From a virus (Duplodnaviria; Caudoviricetes): DNA of 64,000 nt. The notes under the pieces were generated by a model, which saw only the letters and a program-made list of their open reading frames with translations, was not told the DNA's origin and ran no database searches. The stretch is from IMG/VR virus record IMGVR_UViG_3300043694_000018, positions 1 to 64,000 of that record; one strand, given 5' to 3'. The translations under genes and the position numbers were made by a program. Positions 47,003 through 63,244 of this stretch are shown here, piece by piece (the first letter of the stretch is position 1; the number at the start of each line of letters is the position of its first letter).

Positions 47003-47005
47003 GCC

Positions 47006-47374: not shown

Positions 47375-47375
47375 T

Positions 47376-47630
47376 GTGAAGCGGTGTCTGGCGCTCATCC
47401 TGTTGCTGGCTGGTTGCAGCAGCACCAAACCGCCTGACTGGCCAGACCCGCCTTTCAAGATGGAGGTGACGCTCGCGCGTGACGACAAGATCGTCTGCAT
47501 GGAGCGCATCTTCCATGTCGGCTTGCCGACCACGGGCGGGCACTGGCCCAAGGTGATCGGCTACTTGAGGCGCGAGTTCGAGTGTACCGTCGTGCCCGTC
47601 AACTATCCGTTGAGAGGGAGTGAGTGGTAA
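47376..47630 (+). CDS. Lipoprotein (o-spanin candidate)
   Basis: Lipobox LLLAG|C, Pro-rich linker, two further Cys; adjacent to endolysin. Confidence 0.6.
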   Translation: MKRCLALILLLAGCSSTKPPDWPDPPFKMEVTLARDDKIVCMERIFHVGLPTTGGHWPKVIGYLRREFECTVVPVNYPLRGSEW

Positions 47631-48055
47631 TGCCCATGTTGCTCAGCCCGAACTTTAGCCTTGAGGAAATGATCCGGTCGGACACGGCTCAAGCCGAGGG
47701 CATCGTCAATGCGCCCAACTGGGACTGCCTCGTTCAGATGATCCTGCTCTGCAACAACACGCTCGAAGGCATCCGCAAGTTGCTGGGCGACGTGCCGATC
47801 ACCATCACGTCCGGCTTCCGCTGTGGCGACCTCAACGAAGCGGTCGGTGGCGCGGAAAATTCGGCTCACTTGTTCGGCTGCGCCGCCGACTTCCATGCCG
47901 AGGGCTTCACGATCCAAGGGATCATCGCCGCCGTTCAGCCTCACATGGCAGAGCTTGAGATCGACCAGTTGATCGATGAGTACAGTCAGTGGGTCCATGT
48001 CGGTCGCGCCAATTTCGGCGCGACCCCGCGCAACGAGTGTTTCGCCGTCACCTAG
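47630..48055 (+). CDS. Endolysin, peptidase M15A family
   Basis: LSPNFSLEEM, ITSGFRC..LN.AVGG..NSAH..G.AAD, WVH. Confidence 0.88.
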   Translation: MPMLLSPNFSLEEMIRSDTAQAEGIVNAPNWDCLVQMILLCNNTLEGIRKLLGDVPITITSGFRCGDLNEAVGGAENSAHLFGCAADFHAEGFTIQGIIAAVQPHMAELEIDQLIDEYSQWVHVGRANFGATPRNECFAVT

Positions 48056-48378
48056 CGTGGCTGGCCCGCGCGCCGGGCCATCTCCTCGCTGGCTGGCGAG
48101 ATGCGTCCGTACTCGCCGTTGTACCAGCGCGGGAACAGGCGCTCGCCGACCCAGTGGACGGCGAGGATCACGCCGAACGCCGTGTAGGCGATCAGCCATT
48201 CCCACTTGCGGATCGGCTTCTCGACGCCGGGTGGCGTCTTGAGCCACCACAGGATGTCAGGCGGCGGCGCGACGCCGGTCAGCACATCAGGCGTCGGCTT
48301 GGGTGCGGTGAGCCTGAGCGCGACCCACGTGGCGAAGCTCAGCGCGATCACCACCAGCGCGATGTACAGGACCGTCAT
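48052..48378 (-). CDS. Hypothetical membrane protein
   Basis: Two hydrophobic segments. Confidence 0.6.
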   Translation of the reverse strand: MTVLYIALVVIALSFATWVALRLTAPKPTPDVLTGVAPPPDILWWLKTPPGVEKPIRKWEWLIAYTAFGVILAVHWVGERLFPRWYNGEYGRISPASEEMARRAGQPR

Positions 48379-48605
48379 CGGGTCTGGTCCCACGCGCCTG
48401 CGCCGGGATTGGCCTTGCGATCCCAGTCTGCGTCGGAGGCTTCCTCACTGGCGGCGGCCAGCGTGTAAAGCTCCTCGACCAGCCGCTGGATGATCACGAC
48501 CATTGCATCGGGGCCTAGCTCGCCGCTGATGATGGCGAGTTGCTTGCCGACGTGCTCGCTCAGTTCCTTGTAGGCGCGCTCCTGCTTGTACTGTTCGTCT
48601 GCCAT
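48375..48605 (-). CDS. Hypothetical protein
   Basis: GGGAGAAGG RBS, MADEQYK start. Confidence 0.6.
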   Translation of the reverse strand: MADEQYKQERAYKELSEHVGKQLAIISGELGPDAMVVIIQRLVEELYTLAAASEEASDADWDRKANPGAGAWDQTR

Positions 48606-49777
48606 CACGCCTTCTCCCTTCCTGTCATCATCGGCCGCGCCTGTTGCTTGGCGGCCTCCTTGCTCTGCGCCGTCGATGGCACGTTGTCGGTCTTCTGGCT
48701 GCCTTGGCTGCCCGGATACCAGACCTGCATCCAGCCGGGCTGCGTCGCCTGCCCGCCGTAGCCCCGCAGCTTCGGCACGCCTGTCACGGCGACCGCGCCC
48801 GCCGGGCACTTCACGATGTACTGCGTCGGCCCGGTGTGCGGCGTCACCCAGTTGCGCGTCCAGTTGCCGTCGCTCGCAAGCTGCGGGCTCGCGATCTCGG
48901 CTCCGGCCCAGTCCTGCTTGTCGACCACCACCATGATCTGCCCGGCGTTCTCCATCTGCGGGTTCCAGATCATGTGGATGCCGTTCGTCGCATGGATGCC
49001 ACCCATGCCGTTGCAGACGAACTTCGGCGACAGCCACGTCACCTGATCGGACGATGCCAGTTGCTCGGCACCCCAGCCGTCGCAGCGGGAAAGCTGCGCG
49101 TTGTTGACGGTGATCTGCGTGGTGGTGCCGCCGCCGGTTGGCCCGTTCTCGAAGATGACGCCGGTCTTGCCGACATCGTTGGTCTCGATCATGTCGACCG
49201 AGCCCTCGAACGCGCCCATGAACACGTAGCCGTTGCCCGCGACGTGCTCGACGCGCAGGTTCTGGATCGAGAAGTTGTAGAAGCTCTCGTTGTTGCCTTG
49301 GTTGCTGGAGACGAAGCGGAAGGCATCGCCACAGCGCCGGTTGGGATAGTCGCCCGTGACGAACAGGTTCTTCAGCCGGAAGCCCGGCTGCCCATCCTGA
49401 AACTCCAGCAGGTGATCGTAGCTCGCGATGGCGGTGCCGATCTGGAGGCCTGAGCCGTCGAAGTAGAAGTTGGGCTTCGTGACGGGCACGACGATCTTGG
49501 CGCTCACCGTGATCGGCGGACTGGCGGGGTCGACCACGATGCGCCCGCCGTTGGCGGCGGTCTGAAGCGCAGTGCGCAGGTCGCCCTCGTTGTTGATCAT
49601 CGTCAGCATGCCGTTCTCCGGTGGTTGAGGGTCAGGAGGGATCGGATCAGGCGGCGTGGCGGTGAGGGCCGCCAGCGCTTCGGCCGATGCCGCAGGAGCG
49701 TCGCGCAGCCATTGCAGCGTGGCCTCGCTGACCGTTCCGGCGGCCAGCCCGGCGAGTACGTCTCGGCGCTCAGGCAT
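48605..49777 (-). CDS. Right-handed beta-helix (pectin-lyase-like) protein with twin-arginine-like leader
   Basis: MPERRDVLAGLAAG leader; repeated ..I.NL.V..., GNG..F, ..G..F.N beta-helix patterns. Confidence 0.65.
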   Translation of the reverse strand: MPERRDVLAGLAAGTVSEATLQWLRDAPAASAEALAALTATPPDPIPPDPQPPENGMLTMINNEGDLRTALQTAANGGRIVVDPASPPITVSAKIVVPVTKPNFYFDGSGLQIGTAIASYDHLLEFQDGQPGFRLKNLFVTGDYPNRRCGDAFRFVSSNQGNNESFYNFSIQNLRVEHVAGNGYVFMGAFEGSVDMIETNDVGKTGVIFENGPTGGGTTTQITVNNAQLSRCDGWGAEQLASSDQVTWLSPKFVCNGMGGIHATNGIHMIWNPQMENAGQIMVVVDKQDWAGAEIASPQLASDGNWTRNWVTPHTGPTQYIVKCPAGAVAVTGVPKLRGYGGQATQPGWMQVWYPGSQGSQKTDNVPSTAQSKEAAKQQARPMMTGREKA

Positions 49778-49808
49778 GTTCGGTCTCCCTCGTCGGATCA
49801 TGCGCCAC

Positions 49809-50180
49809 TCAGCCCACGGTCGGTGGTGGCCATTTTTGGCGCGGCACCGGCACGCGCACCCGGATCGGGCCGCGCTGCTCGATGAGGGCGCGCAGGCCTG
49901 CCGGGTCGTGGCGTGCCCACACCATGAAGCAGTGGTGGCTGATCACGGTCGGCGGCCAGAGGTCGCCCGGCACCATCGCACGGGGCGCGCAACTTAAAGA
50001 CCCTACTGCCGACTGGGGAAGCCCATATTTGACCGCCAGAGGGCCTTGGCCGGGAGCGCCCGGAGATACGGCCCCGGCGGCCGAGCCTACGTGCTGGTCA
50101 CGGCTGCCAAGCCGCTGGGGTGTCGACGGGGTGTCGACACCTAGGGTCAGCGGATCGGTTACGGAAGGTAACTCTGCCAT
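49809..50180 (-). CDS. Hypothetical protein
   Basis: Fills gap between - strand genes; weak support. Confidence 0.35.
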   Translation of the reverse strand: MAELPSVTDPLTLGVDTPSTPQRLGSRDQHVGSAAGAVSPGAPGQGPLAVKYGLPQSAVGSLSCAPRAMVPGDLWPPTVISHHCFMVWARHDPAGLRALIEQRGPIRVRVPVPRQKWPPPTVG

Positions 50181-50192
50181 GTCACCGCCCGG

Positions 50193-50426
50193 TCACAGAC
50201 GACCCCGGTCTTCGCGCAGCCAGTACCAGAGCACGATGGGCAGCCAGCCGGTCGACCAGCGCAGGAAGCACGTGACGTTGGCGAACCAGAACGCCCGCCA
50301 CTCGGCCCCGGTCTGGGGCCGGGCAACACGCGCCAGCAGGCCGCTCAGCACTGACAGGGCGAACACCGTGCCGATGGCCATGTAGAGCGCCAGCGCGATG
50401 GCCAGCATGCGCTCGAAGTCGCTCAC
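50193..50426 (-). CDS. Small membrane protein
   Basis: GTG overlap; hydrophobic helix. Confidence 0.6.
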   Translation of the reverse strand: MSDFERMLAIALALYMAIGTVFALSVLSGLLARVARPQTGAEWRAFWFANVTCFLRWSTGWLPIVLWYWLREDRGRL

Positions 50427-50635
50427 GCCGCCGCTTCCAGTGTGTCGGTCTGGGCCTGACAGTGGTCGATGATCTGGCCGTAGAACTCGACGGCGGCCTT
50501 CGCGGTCATCGTCTTGGCCACCCGGTCGAGCACATCCTTGGCGGCCTTGGCGGCCTCGGCCGGGCCGGGCGTGCGCCGCTTGGGCTTGGCGGCCTTGCGG
50601 GCCTTCTTCTTCGCTGCCTTGCGTCTCGCTGCCAT
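50423..50635 (-). CDS. Basic Ala/Lys-rich protein
   Basis: GGGAGG RBS; MAARRKAAKKKARK. Confidence 0.65.
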   Translation of the reverse strand: MAARRKAAKKKARKAAKPKRRTPGPAEAAKAAKDVLDRVAKTMTAKAAVEFYGQIIDHCQAQTDTLEAAA

Positions 50636-50645
50636 GGTCTCCTCC

Positions 50646-50924
50646 CTATCGTTGGTAGGTCTTCGATTCGCAGCGCTCCTCCGAGCCCTGCTTCCAGCAC
50701 CGCGTGATCGTCTCGCGCTGGCCGGTGTCGCGCCCGCGCAGCACGGGCGTCGGCGTCGTGTCGCGCTCCCGGCACACCCGGTAGGCCCCTTCCTTCCAGC
50801 ACAGGGTGGACGTGGTCTGCTGGCCGTGCGCGTTGCTGCACATGCTGAGACCCCACAGCCCCATGCCGAAGATCATCGGCATGCCGACAAGCAGCTTCAT
50901 GACGCGCATGTCAGAGTTGGTCAT
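50646..50924 (-). CDS. Small exported protein
   Basis: Signal-like N-terminus; C..C repeats. Confidence 0.55.
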   Translation of the reverse strand: MTNSDMRVMKLLVGMPMIFGMGLWGLSMCSNAHGQQTTSTLCWKEGAYRVCRERDTTPTPVLRGRDTGQRETITRCWKQGSEERCESKTYQR

Positions 50925-50944
50925 CTCCCCCTCCCCCGGTGACT

Positions 50945-51292
50945 TCAGTGCGTCACCCCCGCCGCTTCTTCCTCAAGGTCGTCGTAGCCGCCCAGCGCCT
51001 CGAACATCGGGTGAGCGATCATCGTGCCGTACAGGCGGCTGATGTCCCGGCGCAGCGGTACGACCATGGCGACCGGGATGTCGATCTCCTCGCCCGGCTT
51101 CACGGCGTGGAGCTTCTGCGCCAGCAGGTAGCGGCGGCGGTGCTCCAGTTCGGTGCGTGGCGGCTGCTGGGGATCGCCCGGCTGGACGCAGGCGTTGATG
51201 AGCACGACCCGCACGGTCCACGTCGTCTTGCCGTCCGGCGTGATCATCGGCCGCTGATCGAAATCGACCAGCACCTTGTCGGTCAGCTTCAT
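50945..51292 (-). CDS. Hypothetical protein
   Basis: GAAGG RBS; codon bias. Confidence 0.65.
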   Translation of the reverse strand: MKLTDKVLVDFDQRPMITPDGKTTWTVRVVLINACVQPGDPQQPPRTELEHRRRYLLAQKLHAVKPGEEIDIPVAMVVPLRRDISRLYGTMIAHPMFEALGGYDDLEEEAAGVTH

Positions 51293-51642
51293 GCGCTCAC
51301 CTTCAGTTCGTTCATGACCTCGATGACCTCGGCCCGCCGTTCCTTCGCCCGGTCGATGCGCTCATCGATGTGCTCCAGAACGCGCGGCCAGAGATCAGGC
51401 TGGATCACGGTTTCGAGGCCGTCCCAGCGGCGCACGGTGCGCAGGTTCACGGCGACGGCGCGGCCCATCTCGGACTTCCAGCGCTTGCCGTAGAGGGCAC
51501 GACCGACGCGCTCCAGCAGGCGGCGGTAGCGAACGGCTTCCTTCTTCGTGGGAGGATGCTCCCTGAAATCACGTGGTCGCTGCTTGCTCATGGATGCCCT
51601 AATATCAGGCTGCCCGCTTTCGGTAAACAGCATCATGGTCAT
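51289..51642 (-). CDS. Putative HTH DNA-binding protein
   Basis: GRALYG.RW.SEMGRAVAVNLRTVRRW helix-turn-helix-like pattern; start uncertain. Confidence 0.6.
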   Translation of the reverse strand: MTMMLFTESGQPDIRASMSKQRPRDFREHPPTKKEAVRYRRLLERVGRALYGKRWKSEMGRAVAVNLRTVRRWDGLETVIQPDLWPRVLEHIDERIDRAKERRAEVIEVMNELKVSA

Positions 51643-52010
51643 TGCGGCAAGTTCGATTCGGTGTAGCCGAAGCGCTCCATCAGTGCGTGACGACAGTTCT
51701 CGATCTGCACGAGGAACAGGCGCTCCCAGAAGAAGTCGGAGCGGACCATCCGGTCGAGCAGCTTCTCGTTGTGCCGGTGCTGCGCCTCCTCCCACATCAT
51801 GGCGTAAGCGCGCGCTTCGATCATGGTCTCGCGGTCGTACAGCGTCTCCGGCAGCTTGATGCCGCGCTCGCGCAAGGCCTTGATGGCGCTCCCGGCCGCT
51901 GCGATCACTTGCTGCTCGTTGAGCACCGGCCCGCTCATCGGCGTCAGGCTCTGCGTCGCGACGAACTCCAGCATGTCCTTCGGCGGCTTCGGCAGATCGT
52001 TCGTGCTCAT
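51639..52010 (-). CDS. Hypothetical protein
   Basis: GGAGG RBS. Confidence 0.6.
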   Translation of the reverse strand: MSTNDLPKPPKDMLEFVATQSLTPMSGPVLNEQQVIAAAGSAIKALRERGIKLPETLYDRETMIEARAYAMMWEEAQHRHNEKLLDRMVRSDFFWERLFLVQIENCRHALMERFGYTESNLPQ

Positions 52011-52330
52011 AGGCCCTCCATGAACTCGGCGTCGCCTGTCACGATGATGACAGTGCCGACGAGGTAGTCGCCGATCTCGGACGGCTGGCGGTCGAGCGCG
52101 CGCGCCCACAGCAACGTGGCCTGCGCGTTGAAGGGCAACTTCTTGTTCTTCCCATCCTCGTCGCAGAAGGCGACGCACTGCTGGCCCTCGTAGACGTAGA
52201 AGCTCGGCACCGCCTCGACGTAGCCGCCGTTCAGCGCGGGCTTGATCAGTTCGAGAATGTTCTGCGGGTCGGTGGTGTCGATGCGCGAGATCGGTCGATC
52301 CGGGCGCACGATGTGAAGCGATCCGTTCAT
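52007..52330 (-). CDS. DUF3846-like protein
   Basis: GGYVEAV, FCDEDGK.K.LP.N..AT, DYLVG.V....G. Confidence 0.75.
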   Translation of the reverse strand: MNGSLHIVRPDRPISRIDTTDPQNILELIKPALNGGYVEAVPSFYVYEGQQCVAFCDEDGKNKKLPFNAQATLLWARALDRQPSEIGDYLVGTVIIVTGDAEFMEGL

Positions 52331-52662
52331 GACGACAGCCTCCTCATGTGCAAGAGCGCGATGCAGAGCATGATCGGCAGAACCGGCACGCCGTCGATCA
52401 GCGTCGCGCGGTCGAAGTCGAGCGCACCGTCGAGCAGGCTGCGCATGCCGCTTTCGTCGTGGGCGAGATCGTCGGCACTGATGTCACGTTCCTTCTGCAT
52501 GCGCTCGAAGATCAGGCGCAGCGCACCCAGCGCAGCATTGACGCGGGCCTCGGTCATCACCTCCTCGGGCTCCACGTCGTAGCTCTCGCGCAGCAGGGCG
52601 CGCGCCTTCTCTACCCACTCGGGCGTGATGTACTGGACGATCTCGCGCGGGATGCCCTTCAT
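52327..52662 (-). CDS. Hypothetical protein
   Basis: ATGA overlaps. Confidence 0.6.
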   Translation of the reverse strand: MKGIPREIVQYITPEWVEKARALLRESYDVEPEEVMTEARVNAALGALRLIFERMQKERDISADDLAHDESGMRSLLDGALDFDRATLIDGVPVLPIMLCIALLHMRRLSS

Positions 52663-52913
52663 TCGGCCTTCTCGATGTGCTGCTTGGCGGCTTCGAGCGC
52701 ACTGTCGATCTGCGCCTCCAGATCGGGCACGGTGATCTTGAGCGCCTCCCGCCTGATCTTCTGGAGCGTCACGACCAGCAGGACGTTGGCCTCCTCCAGC
52801 GCGTTCTTCTGTTTGACCAGCTTGGTGATCTGGCCGTGCAGCGCGCCCAGCCGGTCGTTGATCGCGCTGCTCAGGTCATCGACGCGCTTCATCAGTTCTT
52901 CGGTCGTCGGCAT
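52659..52913 (-). CDS. Coiled-coil protein
   Basis: GGAGGAG RBS; heptad pattern. Confidence 0.6.
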   Translation of the reverse strand: MPTTEELMKRVDDLSSAINDRLGALHGQITKLVKQKNALEEANVLLVVTLQKIRREALKITVPDLEAQIDSALEAAKQHIEKAE

Positions 52914-52915
52914 GC

Positions 52916-53218
52916 TCACTCCTCCACGGGCTGGGGCTTTTTGGCGAGGCGGTTGACGGCTTCGGTCAACAGGGCCGCACGCTGGATAATGTACTGGTCG
53001 CGGCATGCCTCCTCCTCGTTCTCGCTGCGCGCCTTGGTCAGGCAGTCATCGTAGGTCTTGCGCGCCGCCTTGACGCGGTTGTCCCAATCGTCGGCGCGCA
53101 GCACGCAGGTCGACAGGCCGATCAGGATCACCGCGCCGAGCACGGTGAAGAAGGCGTCGCGCAGCCGTCGAAAGGCGCAGAACGCCGATACGACCAGCAG
53201 GATGACGACGAAGATCAT
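52916..53218 (-). CDS. Membrane-anchored protein
   Basis: Two N-terminal hydrophobic stretches. Confidence 0.55.
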   Translation of the reverse strand: MIFVVILLVVSAFCAFRRLRDAFFTVLGAVILIGLSTCVLRADDWDNRVKAARKTYDDCLTKARSENEEEACRDQYIIQRAALLTEAVNRLAKKPQPVEE

Positions 53219-53574
53219 CGCAGCGCACTCCGGCGGCCAAGCTGCTTGCCGATCAGTTCGGCCCCGACCTCGTCGCGGGCGTCGCTCTGCTTGACCCACG
53301 TGATTACGCCCGTGGCGGTCACGCCAGTCTCGCCGATCAGCACGCCGACCAGATCGCGGTCGCGCACGAGTTCGGGCATCTCCTCCTCCAACTTCTTGAG
53401 CCGGGCCTCGATGGGTCCCTCGTACTCGAAGACGCCTGCCTCGTTCATGCCGGTGTCGCGCACCGGCATCTTGACGCCGATCAGGTGAATCCGCTGGTAG
53501 CTATCGCCCATCACGAACGACACGCGCCGGGTCTTCCAATTGCTCACGCCGCGCGGGCGACCCCGTGGCATCAC
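53215..53574 (-). CDS. Hypothetical protein
   Basis: GGGGAGGG RBS. Confidence 0.55.
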   Translation of the reverse strand: MMPRGRPRGVSNWKTRRVSFVMGDSYQRIHLIGVKMPVRDTGMNEAGVFEYEGPIEARLKKLEEEMPELVRDRDLVGVLIGETGVTATGVITWVKQSDARDEVGAELIGKQLGRRSALR

Positions 53575-53867
53575 GCCCTCCCCCGGATCGCTTCGCGCTC
53601 GCCGATCTGGCGGTCGATCTCCGTGGCGATGGCGATCAGATCGCGCTCGATCTTGTTGAGGGCTTCGCGGCGCGCGATATGCTCATGGTAGGCAAGCGAC
53701 GCCGCGTCACCCTTGGGGCTGGTGGCGATGGTCTGGTAGTCGCGGCCGTGGACCGTGAGGGCGCTCATCGCAGCTTGCGCGGCCTGTATGGCGTGGATGG
53801 CGTCGAGGTATTCCTGCTTCAGGACCTCGGCGTTCGTGCCGTTGATGTTGATCTGAGGAAACTGCAT
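53571..53867 (-). CDS. Conserved small phage protein
   Basis: ACACAGGAG leader; P.IN.NGT..E.L...Y..A...HGRDYQ motif. Confidence 0.7.
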   Translation of the reverse strand: MQFPQININGTNAEVLKQEYLDAIHAIQAAQAAMSALTVHGRDYQTIATSPKGDAASLAYHEHIARREALNKIERDLIAIATEIDRQIGEREAIRGRA

Positions 53868-53889
53868 TGTCATTCTCCTGTGTTTCGAT

Positions 53890-53905
53890 GCCCTCAATTT
53901 AGGGC
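53890..53905. promoter_or_regulatory. Palindromic site GCCCT-CAATTT-AGGGC
   Basis: Intergenic, upstream of early gene. Confidence 0.8.
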
Positions 53906-53933
53906 GTGACCGGGAGAACTACAAGCCCTCTCG

Positions 53934-54137
53934 TCACTGGCCGCACTGGTCGGGGAACGGTTCCTGCCCCTTGTGGATGCGGGCGTCGTTCGTCGTCTTC
54001 AGGTTGGCCCGGCAGGTCTCGACGGCCTTGCTCCGGGCGATGCCGTCGCCGATCAGGTAGCCGGTCAGCAGCACGGCACAGCCGCTCGTGCTCAGCGCAA
54101 CGCCCGCCAGTACGCACGCCATGGCAAGACGCTTCAC
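53934..54137 (-). CDS. Small lipoprotein
   Basis: GTG start, ALSTSG|C lipobox-like. Confidence 0.55.
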   Translation of the reverse strand: MKRLAMACVLAGVALSTSGCAVLLTGYLIGDGIARSKAVETCRANLKTTNDARIHKGQEPFPDQCGQ

Positions 54138-54373
54138 GATGTCACCTTGGCCAGCGTGGCGTAGCAGTTCATGCCCGCCGTGGTGCGGACCTCCGTGCCA
54201 TTGGCCAGCGTGAACGAGAACGCGCCGCTGTTCACGGCGAGGTCGTAGGCGTCCTTCCACGTCTGCGCGCCGGGATAGGTCTGGCACGTGACATTCCATG
54301 GGCCGCGCGGCGTGGCGGCGGCGACACTGGTGGCCGCGCAAACCAGCGCGGCGATGGCAAAAACTCGAATCAC
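54134..54373 (-). CDS. Small secreted protein
   Basis: AGGAAGG RBS, signal peptide. Confidence 0.6.
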   Translation of the reverse strand: MIRVFAIAALVCAATSVAAATPRGPWNVTCQTYPGAQTWKDAYDLAVNSGAFSFTLANGTEVRTTAGMNCYATLAKVTS

Positions 54374-54399
54374 TCAACACCTTCCTTTCGACGCCCTAA

Positions 54400-54430
54400 G
54401 CCCGCGTCAGCTTTTCAGGGCTGAGCGGGC
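54400..54430 (-). ncRNA. Bulged leader hairpin, copy A
   Basis: GCCCGC-UCAGC-[CCUGAAAA]-GCUGA-C-GCGGGC. Confidence 0.55.
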
Positions 54431-54508
54431 CGGGTTCCTGTGGTAGATCGGGGTGGTTGCCGGGCGGCCAACACAGGACACAAACCGCCCGGCGTCCCCC
54501 ACGCGAGA

Positions 54509-54532
54509 GGGAGCGGCTTCCCATCCGCTCCC
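54509..54532. terminator. GC-rich hairpin after DUF932 gene (possible terminator, no U-tract)
   Basis: GGGAGCGG-cttcccat-CCGCTCCC. Confidence 0.35.
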
Positions 54533-54546
54533 TCCCTCCCAAGTTC

Positions 54547-55665
54547 TTAGGCAGCGACGGGCACCGCCTCGACATCGATCACCGGCTGGGCAGCGGCGCG
54601 GCGGCGGCGGCGCACCGGGGCCGCGTCGGCCTCCAGTACCTGCTTCCACTCGGCCTGCGGCAGTTCCAGCAACTGGCCGCCCAGCTTCTCGAAGTCGACG
54701 GCGCGGTCGTAGTCGGTGGCGTCGTGGGCCTGCGCGGTGACGGCGTTCAGCACGCCCCACTTGCTCAAGTCGCCGCCCTCGATCAGCGACCGCAGGATGC
54801 CGCCGGTCTCGGTCTCGTTGGCACCGATCTTCTGGGCCAGCACCTCGACCGCAGCCGCCGGGTTGCCGACGATCTTGGCCTCGGTCATGCCCTGCATCTT
54901 GGCGACGACCTTGCCGAACTCGATCTCGCCGACCGCGTTCCGCACCATGTCGCGGACCTTGAGCAGGATCGCCCGGTCGTCCGCCTTCTTCGTGTCGTCG
55001 GCCCACAGGGCCTCGTTGTCTTCGATCTTGCGACCGACGTGACGAGCGCTGAAGCGCTGGTCCGGCAGGATCATGCCGTTGAGGCAGCGCAGGCGGTACA
55101 CCATCGGCGTCACCGACACCGCGCCGAAGCCGATCTCGGAGTTCGAGATCACGACACCGGCCTGCACCACGTCGCCGACCTTGACCTCGCCCTGTACACG
55201 CGGGCTCACCGCCTGAATGTACATGCGCCGCTCAGTCACTTCGCAGGAGACGATCTGGACTTGCGGGATGTCGAGCAGCACCGGCAGCGCGACCTCGGCG
55301 ATTTCCTCGTTCTCGATGCGCTGATACTGGTTCGACAGGAAGGCGCGGACGTTGTCCTTCAGGACGCGGACCATGCGCTTCTCGGGGTTCGCGTGGAACC
55401 ACGTGTTGACGTTCTGGGCCAGAAGCTCCGGCTGGTCGGCGAGCATGCGGTCGTAGTATTTGACCGGGATGCCGAGGCGGTTGGCGATCTGGTTGTGAGC
55501 AGTCGGCCGGATGGCGAGCGGCTGCTGGCTGGGGATGACGAGCGACGTGCCCGTCTCGCTGGGCCTCATCTCGACCGACGCGGTGTCGGCGATGAAGTCC
55601 TTCTTCTGGGTCTTCAGGCCCTCGATACGCTGGGCCAACTCGGAAAGCGACAAACCTTTAAGCAT
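54547..55665 (-). CDS. DUF932-like protein
   Basis: ACACAGGA leader; RAFLS..Y.RI.N, G..ISNSE.G.G.V.V......RL.CLNGM. Confidence 0.75.
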   Translation of the reverse strand: MLKGLSLSELAQRIEGLKTQKKDFIADTASVEMRPSETGTSLVIPSQQPLAIRPTAHNQIANRLGIPVKYYDRMLADQPELLAQNVNTWFHANPEKRMVRVLKDNVRAFLSNQYQRIENEEIAEVALPVLLDIPQVQIVSCEVTERRMYIQAVSPRVQGEVKVGDVVQAGVVISNSEIGFGAVSVTPMVYRLRCLNGMILPDQRFSARHVGRKIEDNEALWADDTKKADDRAILLKVRDMVRNAVGEIEFGKVVAKMQGMTEAKIVGNPAAAVEVLAQKIGANETETGGILRSLIEGGDLSKWGVLNAVTAQAHDATDYDRAVDFEKLGGQLLELPQAEWKQVLEADAAPVRRRRRAAAQPVIDVEAVPVAA

Positions 55666-55723
55666 TGAAGTGGTAGTTCCTGTGTTTGCTCCGGCTGCCG
55701 GGATGGTCCCGCCGGGCACCACA

Positions 55724-55752
55724 GAGATAGGCTCACTGAAAAAGTTTTGCAA
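55724..55752 (-). promoter_or_regulatory. Sigma70-like early promoter TTGCAA-N17-TATCTC
   Basis: One of three near-identical promoter boxes. Confidence 0.6.
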
Positions 55753-55761
55753 GCCCCTGAT

Positions 55762-55804
55762 GCCCTTTTTTGAGGGCCTATGGATTGTGCCCTATTTTGC
55801 GGGC
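55762..55804. promoter_or_regulatory. Tandem palindromic sites (GCCCT-TTTTTG-AGGGC and variant GCCCT-ATTTTG-CGGGC)
   Basis: Just upstream of the -35 of the DUF932 promoter. Confidence 0.8.
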
Positions 55805-56001
55805 ATGACCACATCCAGCTTGCGGGGTGCCCGCTGGGTGGCGTGGTAGGTGCAGAAGTGGCCGATCCGGGCCGGGCGCTTGCACTGGTAGGCTGGCTTG
55901 GCCGTGGTCGGCGGCAGCACAGCGGCGAGGCAGCGCGCCGGGTCGACCGGCGGCTGGTCCTCCCTCGGCGAGTACAGGCAGCGCAGCGGCAGGGTGCTCA
56001 T
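55792..56001 (-). CDS. Small Cys/His protein
   Basis: C...C...C.R.....FC..H. Confidence 0.55.
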   Translation of the reverse strand: MSTLPLRCLYSPREDQPPVDPARCLAAVLPPTTAKPAYQCKRPARIGHFCTYHATQRAPRKLDVVMPAK

Positions 56002-56189
56002 GCCGGGGCCTTCTCCTCGGGCGCGTGGCTGCGCAGCGGGAAATCGCGGGTGGTGTGGCACTTCCACGTGCTGTTCGGCTTGTGCGGGTCCGTCACCCAC
56101 TTGTAGCTGTACTCGGTCACGCCGGTCTTGATCAGCGTGATCTGCGCGCCGCACTTGGCACAGGTCGCGGTCTTCGTCATCGGCATCAC
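55998..56189 (-). CDS. Small Zn-ribbon protein
   Basis: CAKCG ... C ... H.P. Confidence 0.6.
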   Translation of the reverse strand: MMPMTKTATCAKCGAQITLIKTGVTEYSYKWVTDPHKPNSTWKCHTTRDFPLRSHAPEEKAPA

Positions 56190-56392
56190 GGGAACTTCTC
56201 TTTCAGGTCGTCCAGCACCGACAGGCTCACCTCGGCGAGCCCGCCCAGAACTCCGTGCATGGCGTTCGCCAAGTCGCGGGCCTCACCCGGCTTCAGCGGC
56301 TTGTCGTCGCTGTTGTAGAGCCGGGTCATGACGCGGCGCAGCTTGGCGACCTCCATGCCGTCGATCACGAAGTCCTTGTCCTCGTCGCTCAT
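56186..56392 (-). CDS. Hypothetical protein
   Basis: ATGA overlaps. Confidence 0.6.
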   Translation of the reverse strand: MSDEDKDFVIDGMEVAKLRRVMTRLYNSDDKPLKPGEARDLANAMHGVLGGLAEVSLSVLDDLKEKFP

Positions 56393-56808
56393 GCCAGCAC
56401 CGCGCCCTGTTCGAGGTCGTAGTTCTCCAGCAACCGCCGGGCGGCGTCGATCTGGTCGGGCCGCATCTCCTCGGCAGCGCGCCGGTCGTTGGCGACCCAG
56501 CGCACGAAGCCCAGCACGTGCCCGGCAAGATCGGGCGACTGGACGCGCCAGTGCTTGAGGTCGTAGCGGCCCACGTACTCCAGCCCATCGGCGAACACGA
56601 CCTTGAAGTCGTGCTTGTCGTACCCGCCGCCGGTCGGCGCGGTGCGGCTGTTCGTGCGCAGCGTGTTGTTGGCGTCAGTCCAGCCCCGGCAGACCTGCAC
56701 GATGCCGCACTCGCTGGCGAGGCCTTCGACGCGCGTGATCTCGATGCGCACCGGGCGGATAAGCTCGCGGTACACCTTGCCGTCCACGCCCTGATAGGTC
56801 GCGCTCAT
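56389..56808 (-). CDS. Hypothetical protein
   Basis: AAGGGGG RBS; GGYDK.DF.V.F.DG..Y.GR.DL motif. Confidence 0.65.
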   Translation of the reverse strand: MSATYQGVDGKVYRELIRPVRIEITRVEGLASECGIVQVCRGWTDANNTLRTNSRTAPTGGGYDKHDFKVVFADGLEYVGRYDLKHWRVQSPDLAGHVLGFVRWVANDRRAAEEMRPDQIDAARRLLENYDLEQGAVLA

Positions 56809-56984
56809 GCGGCCCCCTTGGCGAAGCGGTACTCGCGCTCGGCCCACTGGTCGAGCTTGCTGAGCTTGTCCTTGTACTCGGACTCGCTCAGCTTGCCCGC
56901 CATGTACTGGGCGTCGATGGCGTCAGTGGTGCGCTCGACGGCGCGCTCGATCTGGTCCTCGGTCATGATGGTGTTCGTTCTCAT
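56805..56984 (-). CDS. Small helical protein (59 aa, not in ORF track)
   Basis: Hand translation: MRTNTIMTEDQIERAVERTTDAIDAQYMAGKLSESEYKDKLSKLDQWAEREYRFAKGAA. Confidence 0.65.
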   Translation of the reverse strand: MRTNTIMTEDQIERAVERTTDAIDAQYMAGKLSESEYKDKLSKLDQWAEREYRFAKGAA

Positions 56985-57000
56985 GCCCTCAATTTAGGGC
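56985..57000. promoter_or_regulatory. Palindromic site GCCCT-CAATTT-AGGGC
   Basis: Abuts ATG 56984. Confidence 0.8.
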
Positions 57001-57236
57001 GCGTCGTCGTTGCTTTCAATGGGGAAGACGCGCTGGCCCGGACGATATTCGCGCACGTCGAGGATCGGGTCGTGGTCGTACAGGCGCAGCGACAGGCGCG
57101 ACAGCCAGAGCAGCACCCAGTACAGGCCGTCGACCACGATCTGGCTGAGGCTGAAGACCAGCACCATCAGCAGGAACAGCGGCACGATGAGCGCCAGTAT
57201 CAGGGCGAACGACGCCGCAGCGCGCAGGGCGTTCAT
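56994..57236 (-). CDS. Membrane protein
   Basis: Long hydrophobic segment. Confidence 0.55.
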   Translation of the reverse strand: MNALRAAASFALILALIVPLFLLMVLVFSLSQIVVDGLYWVLLWLSRLSLRLYDHDPILDVREYRPGQRVFPIESNDDAP

Positions 57237-57562
57237 TCGGCCGCCACCTTGGCCGCCAGCGGCACCGGCACCGGGTCAGGCTCGATCACCGGCAGCGGCG
57301 CGACCGTGACGACCGGCTTGGCCGCGCGCTTCTGCGGCTTCACCGTGTAGTTCTGCAACAGGCGCTTGACGGTATCCACCACCATCATCTCGACCAGAAA
57401 CAGCACCTCCTGTCGTGGCAGGTTGGCGTCGGCGACGACGACCCGGACGTGCTGGACGTGCGGGTCGGCGCTGACGACCGGGGCGGACCAGATGACTGGC
57501 CCGCCGGGCGGGACCACTGAGCCGTTGCAGCAGTTGATCTCGATCTCGCAGACGTACTTCAT
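57233..57562 (-). CDS. Hypothetical protein
   Basis: GGAGG RBS. Confidence 0.55.
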   Translation of the reverse strand: MKYVCEIEINCCNGSVVPPGGPVIWSAPVVSADPHVQHVRVVVADANLPRQEVLFLVEMMVVDTVKRLLQNYTVKPQKRAAKPVVTVAPLPVIEPDPVPVPLAAKVAAE

Positions 57563-57843
57563 GCGTTGTTGCTTGAGCCTCCACCGTTTGAACGCTTGCG
57601 CGCGAGCACCCTGCTCCGCGCCCGGACGCAGGGCGCGCACATGCAGGAGTCGAGCGTCTTGTAGAAGATCGAGGCTGCATGCCACGCCGGGCACTCCTCG
57701 CGCAGGGCGATGGCGGCGATCTGGCCCACGTCATCCGGGCGCTTGACCCGGATGGAGGCTCGCACGATGCCTTCCCACTGCTGGATTGTGAACCTATGGC
57801 GTCCCACTACACTCTCCCCATGTCCCCTTTGTAGGGCATGCAA
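57559..57843 (-). CDS. Hypothetical Cys-containing protein
   Basis: ATGA overlap; start uncertain. Confidence 0.4.
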   Translation of the reverse strand: MHALQRGHGESVVGRHRFTIQQWEGIVRASIRVKRPDDVGQIAAIALREECPAWHAASIFYKTLDSCMCAPCVRARSRVLARKRSNGGGSSNNA

Positions 57844-57924
57844 TCTGCGATTGACAAGGATGGAATTGTCCGACTGCGGCGCTCAGGTATTACCCCCAAA
57901 GCGCTCTTGCCTAACCTTTCGGGA

Positions 57925-58110
57925 TCATGACGACAGCGCGCTCCCCTCGCGGACGTTGCCCTCGATCAGGACCTCGGTGGTGTTCTTCATCACCAGCGCA
58001 GTGCCGTGCAGGTCGATCTTGCTGCCCGGCAACCAGACGACCAGTTGATGGTCGTCCAGCGCCGGGTCGAGCTTCATCAGTTCGTCGCGCACTTGCTTGA
58101 CGGTCGCCAT
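57925..58110 (-). CDS. Hypothetical protein
   Basis: GGGGAGG RBS. Confidence 0.65.
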   Translation of the reverse strand: MATVKQVRDELMKLDPALDDHQLVVWLPGSKIDLHGTALVMKNTTEVLIEGNVREGSALSS

Positions 58111-58111
58111 C

Positions 58112-58762
58112 TCACACCTCCCCCGGATCGGCGTTGATCGCCGCGTCGCGCAGTTCCTCCAGCGCGGCCTCGTAGTCCGACTCGGCCTGTTCCTTGGCGT
58201 CGGCCTGTTCGGTCAGGTACTGCTCCCACGCGGTGGTCGCCCAGTCCTGAACGGCGTCGAGGTAGTCCTCGACCGTCGCGAGGTCGAGCCGTTCGGGCTC
58301 CGGCATCGAGTAGTTGTCGAGGAAGTCCTCGAAGCTCTGCTCCTCCGGCTCCTCCAGTTCGGGCTGGTCGAGGCCTTCGATCTCGTCGGCCCACGTCTCG
58401 CAGTTCTGGATGCGCTCCTGAAGCATCTCGCCGGTCGCGCCCTGTTGCAGGCCCTCCGGCATGTTGTCGAGGCTGCCTTGGCACTCCTCACCCAGCGACC
58501 TGATCTCGCCCGCGATCTCCACGAGCGCGTCATACAGGCCGTCATCGAGGCTGAGGTCGCCCATCTGTTCGCTGAAGCTACGCCACTGGCTCTTGAAGCT
58601 CGACCGCGTCAACTGGCTGGGACGCGGGTACGCCTTGCTGACGACCTTGGTCCCCGGCCCGCGCTGGTTCTTGAACGTCCACCAGTAGTACGTGTCACCC
58701 ACCGCGATCCCGGCATGCGGGATCGCCTTGCGGGCGCGCTCGACCTTATTGACGCGCGGCAT
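58112..58762 (-). CDS. Acidic hypothetical protein
   Basis: GGAGG RBS; GD.YYWW N-terminus, acidic helical C-terminus. Confidence 0.7.
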   Translation of the reverse strand: MPRVNKVERARKAIPHAGIAVGDTYYWWTFKNQRGPGTKVVSKAYPRPSQLTRSSFKSQWRSFSEQMGDLSLDDGLYDALVEIAGEIRSLGEECQGSLDNMPEGLQQGATGEMLQERIQNCETWADEIEGLDQPELEEPEEQSFEDFLDNYSMPEPERLDLATVEDYLDAVQDWATTAWEQYLTEQADAKEQAESDYEAALEELRDAAINADPGEV

Positions 58763-59072
58763 CGGAAGCCTCCTTGGCCTTGCGCGCGGCTTCGTCGCGG
58801 TCCCGCTCGCGCAGCATGTGATGCTGCACCAGCGTCGCGATCCGCTCCTCGTCGGCGAACAGGTCCTTCAGCGCGCCGTAGGCACCGCTCAGGTTCGCCA
58901 CCTTGCAGGCGGCATACAGCAGGTCGTTCGCGGCGTCCTTGTCACCGGCCGCGAAGCTCATGTCGATGAACACCGTGTTCGGCTTGTCCTCGGCGGTGTT
59001 CGCCCCAACCCGCAGGTTGGTGATGCTGCCGACAATCGTGCTGACGGTCGGCGGGTCCTTCCTTCTTGCCAT
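58746..59072 (-). CDS. Hypothetical protein
   Basis: ACACAGGAG leader. Confidence 0.65.
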   Translation of the reverse strand: MARRKDPPTVSTIVGSITNLRVGANTAEDKPNTVFIDMSFAAGDKDAANDLLYAACKVANLSGAYGALKDLFADEERIATLVQHHMLRERDRDEAARKAKEASDAARQ

Positions 59073-59094
59073 GTCACTCTCCTGTGTTGTTGTG

Positions 59095-59114
59095 ACGCCC
59101 TAAATTTAGGGCGT
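59095..59114. promoter_or_regulatory. Perfect 20-bp palindrome ACGCCCTAAATTTAGGGCGT
   Basis: Upstream of the ACACAGGAG leader of gene 58746-59072. Confidence 0.8.
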
Positions 59115-59366
59115 GGCCTTCCCGTTTTCAAGGGCCGCCGCACGCTCGGCCTTGCTCGGATAGATCACGCGCTGGCGGCGGAACACGCGCTTCTGCGGCT
59201 CCGGCTCAGGCGTGCTCGGCCCATAGGGCGCGACGCCCGGCGGCAGGTTGTGGTTGATGATGGCGAGGTTGGCCGCCTCGACGGCGGCCTCGGCGAGCTT
59301 CAGCGCATCGTGCGCCCGGCGCAGGCAGGCGTAGGCCTTCACCAGCAGGTCGTGCCGTTCACTCAC
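59106..59366 (-). CDS. Hypothetical protein
   Basis: GTG overlap. Confidence 0.55.
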   Translation of the reverse strand: MSERHDLLVKAYACLRRAHDALKLAEAAVEAANLAIINHNLPPGVAPYGPSTPEPEPQKRVFRRQRVIYPSKAERAAALENGKATP

Positions 59367-59556
59367 GCGGCACCTTGCTTTCGAGCACGATGACGCGCTT
59401 GATCCGGTCGTGCCAGATGCGGAACGACTCGGTCGGCCGGTTCGGCACTTCGAGCACGATCTCGCAGTCGCTGTGGCGATAGGGCTCGGCCAGCCGGGCG
59501 GTGGTGTCGCCGCCGTTGGTCGTGAGCACGCGCACGAGGATGCCCTTGGGGATCAT
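59359..59556 (-). CDS. Hypothetical SH3-like small protein
   Basis: G..VRV.T.NGG beta-rich pattern. Confidence 0.55.
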   Translation of the reverse strand: MIPKGILVRVLTTNGGDTTARLAEPYRHSDCEIVLEVPNRPTESFRIWHDRIKRVIVLESKVPRE

Positions 59557-59559
59557 GGT

Positions 59560-59844
59560 TCAGGCCTCCAGCGTCCGGGTGAGGTTCAGCCGCGCCGCCA
59601 TCGGCACCCGGTCGAGGGTGTCGTTGGCGTTGACGATCATCGCCATGCTGTACGAGCCGTAGGGCTTGAACTGCTCGACGCCGTTGTAGACCGAGAGGCG
59701 GCGCACGACGCGCTTGCCGTGGACCTCGGTGGTGATGGTCTTCGCGGTGCGCGCCTCGATGCGGAAGAAGCTCCACAACTGGCTATCGCCCGTGAAGTTG
59801 TCGGCGTAGGTGGTGCCGACCTGAAAGCGCTTGATGTCGTTCAC
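59560..59844 (-). CDS. Hypothetical protein
   Basis: ACACAGGAG leader before GTG; F.VG.TY......D.......RTAKTI motif. Confidence 0.7.
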   Translation of the reverse strand: MNDIKRFQVGTTYADNFTGDSQLWSFFRIEARTAKTITTEVHGKRVVRRLSVYNGVEQFKPYGSYSMAMIVNANDTLDRVPMAARLNLTRTLEA

Positions 59845-59857
59845 GATGATCTCCTGT

Positions 59858-59883
59858 GTCACGCCCTAAATAGAGGGCGTGAC
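59858..59883. promoter_or_regulatory. Extended palindrome GTCACGCCCT-AAATAG-AGGGCGTGAC
   Basis: Intergenic. Confidence 0.8.
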
Positions 59884-59900
59884 GTTCGGGGTTCAAGGGT

Positions 59901-60086
59901 TCAGCGGCGGGTCTTCGCGGCCTTCTTGGCGGCGGCCAGAAAGTCGTCGCCGACCTTCAGGACGCTCACCCGGTGAAGCCGCGCGATCATGCGTAGCCGC
60001 ACAGACGAGGTTTCGATGACGCCCTTGGGCGAGGTGCGCTTGGCTTCCTCGACCAGCCGGGCAATCGCCTCTCGGTACTTGCTCAT
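59901..60086 (-). CDS. Hypothetical protein
   Basis: GGAGG RBS. Confidence 0.6.
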   Translation of the reverse strand: MSKYREAIARLVEEAKRTSPKGVIETSSVRLRMIARLHRVSVLKVGDDFLAAAKKAAKTRR

Positions 60087-60490
60087 CGCACCACCTCCAC
60101 CACTTCTCGCTCGGCGAGGTAGCGGTACTTGCCGTCAGCAAACTCGACGCGGGCGCGCATGTAGCGCGTGCCGCCAACGCTAGTCCGGCGCGTCCACTCG
60201 ATGGCCGCGACCTCGCGGGCACCGTCGCCGCCGATCACCAGCCAGTCGCCGACCTTCACGGCCTCGGCCTCGATGTTCTCGAAGCGGCCGAGGTCGCCCT
60301 CGGCCATCTGCGGCACCGCGCGGGCCTTGGCCAGTTCGGCGCGGAGGTCCCACGCTCGGTCGAGCAGCTTGCGGCTGACGCTCGCGGCGTCGTAGGCATC
60401 CGACTCCAAGCCGTACTGGCTGAGGAGCTTGGCGGCCTCCTTGCACCGCGCGGAGGCGGTGAACAGAATCTCTACTTGTGTGTCAGTCAT
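60083..60490 (-). CDS. Hypothetical protein
   Basis: ACACAGGAC leader. Confidence 0.65.
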   Translation of the reverse strand: MTDTQVEILFTASARCKEAAKLLSQYGLESDAYDAASVSRKLLDRAWDLRAELAKARAVPQMAEGDLGRFENIEAEAVKVGDWLVIGGDGAREVAAIEWTRRTSVGGTRYMRARVEFADGKYRYLAEREVVEVVR

Positions 60491-60522
60491 GATGGTCCTG
60501 TGTTGGTTCTCTCGACTCCCCG

Positions 60523-60554
60523 ACCCCGCTCACGGGTCCTAACCGTGGCGGGGT
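60523..60554 (-). ncRNA. Bulged leader hairpin, copy B
   Basis: ACCCCGC-CACGG-[UUAGGAC]-CCGUG-A-GCGGGGU. Confidence 0.55.
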
Positions 60555-60637
60555 TCTGGGGTGATGCCGGGGCTCGACCCGGCGGCTGCATTTCCTAGGC
60601 CGTCCCCGACACTCCGGGGTGCTTCGCCCTCCCCACC

Positions 60638-60682
60638 AAGATGGGGATGCTGAAAGATTTTTGCAAGCCCTAAAAAGAGGAC
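60638..60682 (-). promoter_or_regulatory. Sigma70-like early promoter TTGCAA-N17-CATCTT abutting variant palindrome GCCCT-AAAAAG-AGGAC
   Basis: Sequence match to the other two copies. Confidence 0.6.
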
Positions 60683-61149
60683 ATCAAAACCTCGTACTTT
60701 TCGCTCAGCCCGCGCACGAGATCGGCAGCCTCAGAGAAGGTATCGGCCGGGACGCGCAGGGTCTCGACCGGGTGCTGCCCGGCATCTGGGCCGCTCATCA
60801 GCGTCGCGTTGCCGTTGACGTATTGCACCGTCCAGAGCGTCTGGACCTTGGCCTTTGGGTTGGCCACGACCACGTCGAGCGGCTTGCGGTTGAAGCTATC
60901 GTCCAACAGCGTCGCCCGCTCGTACTCGTAGACCTTCGAGCCGGGGAACGTGTCGAACACGATGCGCCCGGTGGTCCGGCCCTCGGCGACCAGCCTGCGG
61001 CTGGCGTGGCAGCCAGTCTTGAACTCCATGCGGGAGTTGTGCTTGCGCTCGCCCCAGCTTGGCTTGTAGGCGTACTTCGCCACGTTGGCCTCGCGGCCGT
61101 CCGTGAGCTTCACGCGCTCGGCCGTCACTCGATAGACATACGCACCCAT
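60670..61149 (-). CDS. Hypothetical protein
   Basis: ACACAGGAG leader. Confidence 0.65.
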   Translation of the reverse strand: MGAYVYRVTAERVKLTDGREANVAKYAYKPSWGERKHNSRMEFKTGCHASRRLVAEGRTTGRIVFDTFPGSKVYEYERATLLDDSFNRKPLDVVVANPKAKVQTLWTVQYVNGNATLMSGPDAGQHPVETLRVPADTFSEAADLVRGLSEKYEVLMSSF

Positions 61150-61183
61150 TGAACTCTCCTGTGTTGGTTCTCTCGACTCCCTG

Positions 61184-61216
61184 ACCCCGCGTCAGGTTCT
61201 CAGGCCTGAGCGGGGT
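61184..61216 (-). ncRNA. Bulged leader hairpin, copy C
   Basis: ACCCCGC-UCAGG-[CCUGAGAA]-CCUGA-C-GCGGGGU. Confidence 0.55.
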
Positions 61217-61224
61217 TGCGGGGG

Positions 61225-62187
61225 TTACATCTGATGATTGTCGCCGCTGAAGTCGTTGTAGTCCGGCTCCGGCTCGGCCGACCCGGTCGAGTAGTCGGTG
61301 CGGGCACCGTCGCCGTCTTCGCTGCGCTGGTCGTCGGCAGGCCCGATCTTGCGGGCCTGCGTCGGGCGACTGAAGAAGCCGAACTTCGGGTCATCCCGGC
61401 TCGGCTGGACCTTGGCGCTGAACTCGACGGTGTCGCCGCGCTCGACGCTCAGACCGGCGGGGACCGTGCCCCACACCTTCCAGCCGTCCTGATGGCGGAC
61501 CAGCATCTTGAGCACCGAGCCCCGGAAGCCATCGACCAGCTTGGTGCTGACGACCTCGCCCCGGATGGTGATGCGCTGGTCGCTGACCGGGAGCGGCGCG
61601 GCGGCGGCCTTCTCGGCCTCGCGCTGGGCGGTGCGCTGGGCGCGGTTGCTGATGTCGCTCAGCAGCTTGCCCACGAAGTTCGCCTGCTTGTCCGAGATCG
61701 AGCCGTAGCGCACGACCTTCGAGACGATGTCAGTGATGATCGACTCCTCGCGGGGAAGCGGCGCGTCGTAGGTCGCGGTGTAGATCGTCCACGCGGTGTT
61801 CAACTGGCGGTCGGCCAGAAGCTCCTGCGCGCGGGCCTTGCCCTTGAAGGTCTTGCGGCCAGCCGCGATCCGCTTCTTGAACGAGCGGAAGGCAGTGGCG
61901 TCGCCCATGTCCATCTTCTCGGCGCAGTCCATGCCGGTCTGGATGTAGGCGTTGCTCGGGCGATGATGGAAGCGCGCCACGTACATGGCGTGCGCGCCGC
62001 ACACGTGGCACGTGCCACCGTGCTCGTGATGAGACCACGTGCCACCCGTGCGCTTCTGATGCTCGCGGAAGAACATGCGGTCGCTGAGGAACGCCATGGA
62101 GTCCACGCCGCCGCCCAGATAGTCACAACTGACGTAGTCGTACTCCTGCGGCTGGATGGTGCTCGGGCGATGAAGGTCGGTTCTCAT
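61225..62187 (-). CDS. Protein with CxxC region and C-terminal OB-fold-like domain
   Basis: ACACAGGAC leader; CHVCG...CAEK; ITIRGEV....KVWGT...GDTVEF.A.V....DD..FGFFSRP. Confidence 0.7.
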   Translation of the reverse strand: MRTDLHRPSTIQPQEYDYVSCDYLGGGVDSMAFLSDRMFFREHQKRTGGTWSHHEHGGTCHVCGAHAMYVARFHHRPSNAYIQTGMDCAEKMDMGDATAFRSFKKRIAAGRKTFKGKARAQELLADRQLNTAWTIYTATYDAPLPREESIITDIVSKVVRYGSISDKQANFVGKLLSDISNRAQRTAQREAEKAAAAPLPVSDQRITIRGEVVSTKLVDGFRGSVLKMLVRHQDGWKVWGTVPAGLSVERGDTVEFSAKVQPSRDDPKFGFFSRPTQARKIGPADDQRSEDGDGARTDYSTGSAEPEPDYNDFSGDNHQM

Positions 62188-62224
62188 ATGGTCCTGTGTT
62201 TCCGGGCCACGGCGGCCCACCACA

Positions 62225-63181: not shown

Positions 63182-63244
63182 TCGACTTCTCCTGTGTTCA
63201 ATCGAATGAAAGATTTTAGCACAGGAGGAAGCAAAAGTCGAGAC

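Follow-up and report, generated by a model that had tools for sequence, protein, structure and literature searches.

A minus-strand hairpin in a phage operon spacer displays the complement of a shared ribosome-binding leader: a candidate anti-leader RNA element

Most of what is known about the control of early genes in phages concerns proteins, among them repressors, RegA and RegB, and the few RNA cases, c4 and P4 CI, involve one or two sites each. The loops of c4 pair with sites that include the ribosome-binding site (RBS) of icd. The UCCC-loop sRNAs of S. aureus and the CcsR or 'cuckoo' RNAs display C-rich, anti-Shine-Dalgarno (anti-SD) sequences in hairpin loops and have many targets; RNAs of these types are separate genes with a promoter and a terminator, often with several hairpins. 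In the immI operon of P1/P7, the icd/ant genes downstream are fully repressed only if the c4 antisense RNA is present (PMC8198154). In S. aureus icaR, a pyrimidine-rich anti-SD motif in the 3'UTR can pair with the Shine-Dalgarno (SD) region of the 5'UTR (PMC3868564). Phage T4 provides examples in which one factor reaches many messages: the RegB endoribonuclease inactivates many early messages via the RBS motif GGAG and a wider conserved context (PMC1702504), and the translational repressor RegA is a single phage factor that acts on many early messages through a shared RBS sequence (PMC3014915). Here we describe a hairpin, H2, whose loop is complementary to a leader shared by the RBSs of a series of phage genes. 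By analogy, its logic would be closest to that of P1 c4 and the icaR 3'UTR, and its one-to-many scope closest to that of T4 RegB.

The locus lies in an IMG/VR virus record of 79,317 bp (65% G+C), the first 64 kb of which make up the window, the whole stretch of DNA analysed here. Third-position G+C (GC3) places structural genes on the plus strand at 1-48 kb and a long series of small genes on the minus strand, running from ~77 kb down to 48 kb. H2 sits within a 166-nt spacer that extends on the minus strand from the stop codon of a DUF932 gene to a gene for a 79-aa protein (Table 1). Because the flanking gene run is encoded on the minus strand, this is the transcribed strand at H2, as the original prediction implied without saying so; the hairpin, which shares its strand with all the genes, is very probably transcribed. 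The genes 3' of H2 lack a promoter of their own, and the likely source of the H2-bearing transcript is the cassette at 55719-55756, a putative promoter. Cassettes of this type (TTGCAA, 17 nt, C/T-ATCT-C/T) occur three times on the minus strand, at 55719-55756, 62220-62257 and 60633-60670, and each leads a unit with an H3-type hairpin; a GCCCT-N6-AGGGC palindrome lies immediately upstream of the copy at 55756. DUF932 was the sole named family found in Pfam and PHROGs (seven tagged genes were scanned in PHROGs, four of these in Pfam), and neither database gave a function for the genes checked. A search with the DUF932 protein brought up one close relative, on the metagenome contig L123 (soil-type, 2.75 kb), at 91% amino acid identity. 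Further DUF932 relatives are many, at 72% or less, and a homologue that is 83% identical, P0002, lies on a 12-kb contig.

Table 1. Features of the H2 locus and the leaders complementary to the H2 loop. Positions are those of the window and its continuation in the same record.
Feature	Position	Strand	Remarks
Leader/RBS of 98-aa gene	53876..53884	-	9-nt complement to H2 loop
79-aa gene downstream of spacer	54134..54373	-	Signal-peptide-like N-terminus; own AGGAAGG RBS; missing in L123
Hairpin H3, bulged, family D17	54400..54430	-	Also at 61184-61216 and 60523-60554; RBS of 79-aa gene follows; identical in L123
Orphan leader-like CACAGGA	54436..54442	-	16 nt 3' of H2; start codon absent after it; conserved in L123
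Hairpin H2	54459..54493	-	9-bp G+C stem, 54485-54493 with 54459-54467; 17-nt loop, 54468-54484
Anti-leader 12-mer in H2 loop	54468..54479	-	Exact complement of leader 60495-60506; opening costs 3.3 kcal/mol
H2 lower stem, 5' side (G run)	54494..54500	-	Pairs with C run 54450-54456 in RNAfold minimum-energy and centroid folds
Hairpin H1	54505..54536	-	Directly after DUF932 stop codon; sequence diverged in L123, hairpin retained
DUF932 gene, 372 aa	54547..55665	-	Pfam PF06067; phrog_1362; high GC3; H2 in its 3' untranslated spacer
Leader/RBS of DUF932 gene	55678..55686	-	9-nt complement; same mRNA as H2
Promoter-like cassette TTGCAA, 17 nt, TATCTC	55719..55756	-	Repeat family D7; conserved in L123; putative promoter
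Leader/RBS of 108-aa gene	59080..59089	-	10-nt complement to H2 loop
Leader/RBS of 94-aa gene	59852..59859	-	8-nt complement to H2 loop
Leader/RBS of 135-aa gene	60495..60506	-	12-nt complement; best predicted target; duplex -23.2, target opening +5.0 kcal/mol
Leader/RBS of 159-aa gene	61157..61167	-	11-nt complement to H2 loop
Leader/RBS of 320-aa gene	62191..62200	-	10-nt complement to H2 loop
Leader/RBS of 109-aa gene	63190..63198	-	9-nt complement to H2 loop
Orphan leader copy outside window	66093..66102	-	10-nt complement to H2 loop
Leader copy outside window	72110..72120	-	11-nt complement to H2 loop

The perfect 9-bp stem of H2 is read directly from the minus strand, with its 5' arm at 54493-54485 and its 3' arm at 54467-54459, in agreement with the original prediction. 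RNAfold places H2 in both the minimum-energy and the centroid fold of the spacer, where two U.G pairs and a lower stem of 5 bp lengthen it. H2 is the middle one of three predicted spacer hairpins, after H1 (54536-54505) and before H3 (54430-54400), and the minus-strand spacer fold beats all 200 of 200 shuffled sequences (z = -3.55). Together with a conserved 3' tail that leads into the next RBS, H3 recurs within the phage with covarying upper stems, and relatives that are 61-72% identical also have H3-like hairpins behind the DUF932 gene (L124:4150-4200 and L003:4145-4190). H3 is older than H2 and more widely distributed.

A consensus scan of 54380-54550 found neither a promoter nor a U-tract terminator on either strand. 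No U run follows H1, H2 or H3, an A/C-rich stretch being found after H2, and a 17-nt loop with no U tract does not have the form of an intrinsic (Rho-independent) terminator. With neither a promoter nor a U-tract terminator to itself, H2 is not an sRNA gene in its own right, nor an intrinsic terminator, but a part of the 166-nt DUF932 operon spacer. A weak promoter inside H2 was also considered and rejected on account of its poor hexamers. Searches of both strands of 47000-64000 with cmscan gave zero Rfam family matches at E values up to 1, C4 included, and a tRNA scan was empty. We likewise rejected a coding role for the spacer: its 59-aa (minus strand) and 36-aa (plus strand) ORFs are disrupted by an indel in L123 and by the divergence of H1, and the conservation of the spacer thus does not come from coding.

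The leader complementary to the loop is itself a repeated element. The window contains 10 copies of ACACAGGA where 1.76 are expected, a number reached in 0 of 100 shuffles. The minus strand of the whole record also holds 10, all within 53.8-72.1 kb, and nine of these lie 4-12 nt upstream of an ATG or GTG. ACACAGGA is a genuine shared ribosome-binding tag, which bears out the description of the motif as the common RBS leader of minus-strand genes ("early" is the label of the original prediction). The tag is carried by genes in first position behind a promoter-like cassette or a hairpin; those overlapping or abutting the preceding gene have ordinary, varied SD sequences instead. The tenth minus-strand copy (66094) is an orphan because 32 nt separate it from the next start codon. 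This copy, at 66093-66102 and beyond the window, follows a G+C hairpin, and the gene that starts at ATG 66054, for a ~70-aa protein with a hydrophobic N-terminus, is too distant for the tag to serve as its RBS. The plus strand of the record has three copies: the RBS of a plus-strand gene (78958), one at 4326 and the H2 loop. After the last of these, as originally noted, ATG, GTG and TTG are all absent on the plus strand.

Read on the minus strand, positions 54468-54479 of the loop are the exact 12-nt complement of the leader at 60495-60506, just as first described, and further leaders are complementary over shorter stretches (Table 1; lengths are contiguous matches to the H2 loop). The match lengths reported earlier (11 nt at 61157, 10 nt at 62191) stand, and three of the start coordinates given with them were off by one. 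When duplex and target opening are summed, the leaders of the genes that start at 60490, 61149, 59072 and 62187 have predicted energies of -18.2, -16.8, -14.9 and -13.7 kcal/mol, against a median of -3.3 kcal/mol for untagged genes. Folding is predicted for the tagged leaders of the genes at 63181, 59844, 55665 and 53867, which would take 9-14 kcal/mol to open; for the DUF932 gene's own leader, a duplex of -14.8 is set against an opening cost of +9.3 kcal/mol. The two best targets (60495 and 61157) are exactly those that come after H3-type hairpins, and the tag is predicted to be mostly single-stranded there.

How much of this could arise by chance depends on what is counted. Antisense copies of the 11-nt tag are expected 0.019 times per strand per genome. 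The region from 47 to 79 kb contains 724 inverted 11-mer pairs, compared with ~400 in shuffled sequences, and a lone inverted match of 11-12 nt is not rare in itself. The signal is the match to a repeated leader together with its display in a loop. Among the 50 minus-strand hairpins at 47-79 kb with a perfect stem of at least 7 bp and a loop of 8-21 nt, H2 alone has a 12-nt loop complement to a translation start region, the runner-up having 9 nt. Counting loop complements of at least 8 nt, H2 matches nine start regions and the runner-up two.

We tentatively read H2 as an operon-embedded anti-leader RNA element that acts on the shared RBS by occlusion, an interpretation that we hold to be possible and somewhat short of probable. 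The operon would be transcribed on the minus strand from the promoter-like cassette at ~55756, and the 166-nt spacer after the DUF932 stop codon is predicted to form three hairpins in that RNA. The middle one, H2, presents 12 nt antisense to the shared leader/RBS in a large open loop, which could pair with the start regions of up to nine or ten minus-strand genes, those at 60495 and 61157 being the best. H2 would act within the long mRNA or after a putative processing step, and pairing would mask SD bases and so reduce the translation or stability of the target messages. The CACAGGA 16 nt downstream might conceivably compete for the loop in cis. Within its own mRNA, H2 might also pair with the DUF932 leader in the manner of a 5'-3' UTR interaction, although this candidate is weaker. 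Pairing of loop and leader in vivo and its effect on translation are inferred. We count against the anti-leader reading that one hairpin per operon message would face many abundant mRNAs. H2 would also be made together with the messages it would repress, and for this reason a temporal switch is not evident. The predicted folding of four tagged leaders, the lack of an Rfam match and the existence in G003 of a shared leader without an antisense copy weigh against it as well. We think it rather doubtful that a single hairpin, by reading a private tag made up of the SD and 5-7 bases before it at the first gene of nearly every early unit, sets the translation of the whole class, with a decoy as buffer.

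Compared with the described systems, the proposed element shares parts with each. H2 resembles c4 (RF01695) in sharing a strand and, by presumed co-transcription, an operon with targets, and in having a loop that complements a target RBS. Unlike c4, H2 does not match the Rfam C4 model; c4 targets lie just downstream in its own operon, whereas the best candidate targets of H2 are in other transcription units and number ~10, and RNase P processing is known for c4. As in icaR, H2 lies 3' of a coding region, that of DUF932, whose own leader has nine complementary bases. It differs from icaR in that pairing with this leader is predicted to be weak, with better partners on other mRNAs, and in that the RNA runs on into further genes, making the site a spacer rather than a true 3'UTR. 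H2 resembles the UCCC-loop and CcsR sRNAs in displaying an anti-SD sequence in a loop, by which one RNA could reach many RBSs; in contrast to them it is one phage-encoded hairpin within an operon, and its specificity would reach a further 5-7 nt upstream of the SD, into a private tag. RegB and RegA are proteins, whereas the proposed effector here is RNA.

The loop and the leader can be compared in two sequences, this phage and L123. The DUF932 genes of the two share 89.5% DNA identity, and 76% identity at four-fold degenerate sites. A 113-nt block that closely encloses H2 and H3 differs by 3 substitutions and 1 inserted base, a conservation with P ~4e-9 at the four-fold-site rate; this high local identity could in part reflect recent module exchange rather than selection. 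The H2 stem and the 12-mer are unchanged in L123. Loop positions 1 and 5 are substituted, both outside the 12-mer (2 of the 5 remaining loop positions changed), an outcome found in 10 of 136 ways by chance, and the change at position 1 converts a closing U.G pair into C-G. Within a few bases of H2, H1 is mostly altered in sequence and still forms a hairpin. H1 therefore appears constrained in structure and H2 in sequence. The invariance of the 12-mer taken by itself (0.76^12, ~0.04) is weak evidence.

Beyond L123, in the relatives L124 (72%) and L002-L004 (61-63%), an H3-like hairpin is the only one of these elements behind the DUF932 gene. The tag is found in 0-1 copies, both strands counted, in the complete records G001-G004, where H2 is absent, and the 7-kb L124 locus has zero tag copies and no H2. 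In these sequences, the tag and anti-tag are confined to one lineage, and so constitute one single evolutionary observation. The record that contains L002, G003, has a shared leader of its own around TAGGAGAG; its plus strand carries this leader 7-8 times in sense orientation, and antisense copies are absent from the entire record. A shared leader thus does not require an anti-leader partner, and we rejected anti-leader loops as a general trait of this phage group. A blastn search with 53500-56000 gave no match in the phage collection. In viral contigs, a 14-mer leader pattern, which was too loose, returned single chance matches only, and two H2-specific patterns returned none. A 19-mer had 5 matches in bacterial genomes, about the number expected by chance and all without a hairpin, and the DUF932 protein had no relative in bacterial genomes. 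The start of the DUF932 leader is the most diverged spot of the promoter region: the first transcribed bases (55705-55720, minus strand, against L123:335-350) differ at ~5 of 10 positions, and both versions complement the RBS tag, in different registers.

The main rival reading is that H2 is a local structural or processing module, formed with H1, H3 and CACAGGA, that has no action in trans; we regard this as unlikely on balance. Such a module could be a processing site, stop exonucleases or Rho, or insulate DUF932 from the small genes that follow it, and its loop would resemble the leaders only through descent from a leader cassette. The stability of the spacer fold against shuffled sequences favours it, as does the C-rich, G-poor linker, which resembles a Rho-loading site, and so does the conserved cis partner 16 nt downstream. 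CACAGGA is present on the minus strand as first reported, and seven loop bases could form a helix with it (54442-54436), for a duplex energy of -12.4 kcal/mol once a 3-bp extension is counted. A 7-bp pairing and, judging by the loop lengths, an H-type pseudoknot are sterically permitted; the original claim that this pseudoknot locks the loop gains no support. L123 has the same sequence on both sides of the cis helix and so offers no covariation, and the 1-nt insertion in the L123 linker weakens the 3-bp extension. The loop matches distant leaders over 10-12 nt and the cis copy over just 7, a sign that it was shaped by something other than the cis site. Also against a purely local role, a structural hairpin should drift as H1 has done, but the H2 stem and 12-mer are invariant.

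Similar arrangements elsewhere in the phage also speak for a local role. CUGUG-type arms are predicted to pair in cis with the tag in the DUF932 leader (55665) and, via 63220-63229, in read-through RNA upstream of the 63181 leader, and the 5' arm of the L123 DUF932 leader has 9 nt in common with the H2 loop. This recurrent cis pairing of the tag suggests that RBS occlusion is habitual in the phage, at least in cis. The segment 63220-63229 (minus strand) is a 10-12-nt complement of the RBS tag at 63190-63198, 30 nt downstream, and the fold prediction pairs the two. It lies between the -35 and -10 hexamers of a promoter-like site, 63241-63213; since only upstream read-through RNA contains the segment, the RBS would be sequestered in read-through RNA only.

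A less probable alternative takes H2 for a relic or recombination boundary, in which an inverted leader-cassette fragment became trapped between inverted repeats, with an inert loop and with block similarity that stems from recent exchange or from a module-shuffling junction. Promoter, leader and hairpin cassettes are repeated across the region, inverted 11-mer matches are common in this G+C-rich DNA, and such repeated cassettes, as PeSL elements, reportedly mediate gene shuffling in T4-type phages. Gene content changes beside the block, with the 79-aa gene missing in L123. As a separate observation, the next gene, for a 67-aa lipoprotein-like protein (54137-53934, minus strand), is retained there, and the indel of a whole small gene adjoins the conserved H2-H3 block. 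At 113 nt, however, the block is short, and it is bounded on one side by the strongly diverged H1, unlike a recent long exchange. Both loop changes spare the 12-mer, and the low number of antisense tag copies expected by chance, given above, also counts against a relic, a reading that we consider improbable.

The canonical binding sites of CsrA/RsmA carry GGA in a hairpin loop, with the consensus ANGGA or CANGGANG. A function on the plus strand or in the DNA itself, either as a transcript that displays the tag with its GGA as a decoy, as the original prediction had offered, or as a 9-bp inverted repeat bound by a protein, is very improbable: the plus strand folds equally well (z = -4.37) and in part resembles a promoter-proximal leader layout, but GGA lies in the loop only on that strand, where no promoter was found at 54380-54550, all high-GC3 gene calls here are on the minus strand, the L123 indel interrupts the plus-strand ORFs over this stretch, and the stem extension needs U.G pairs that exist only on the minus strand, one of which has become C-G in L123. 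The decoy version is weak because of the absent plus-strand promoter and because the tag fits neither ANGGA nor CANGGANG.

The tag and anti-tag are short, and reporter assays with compensatory mutations could probe their pairing while the phage itself stays uncultured. Should the loop prove inert, the locus would show that duplicated leader cassettes are able to mimic antisense regulators. If the anti-leader reading is true, an RNA that reads a class-wide tag would be a compact means of co-regulating many genes, and it would account for the leaders keeping bases upstream of the SD core.
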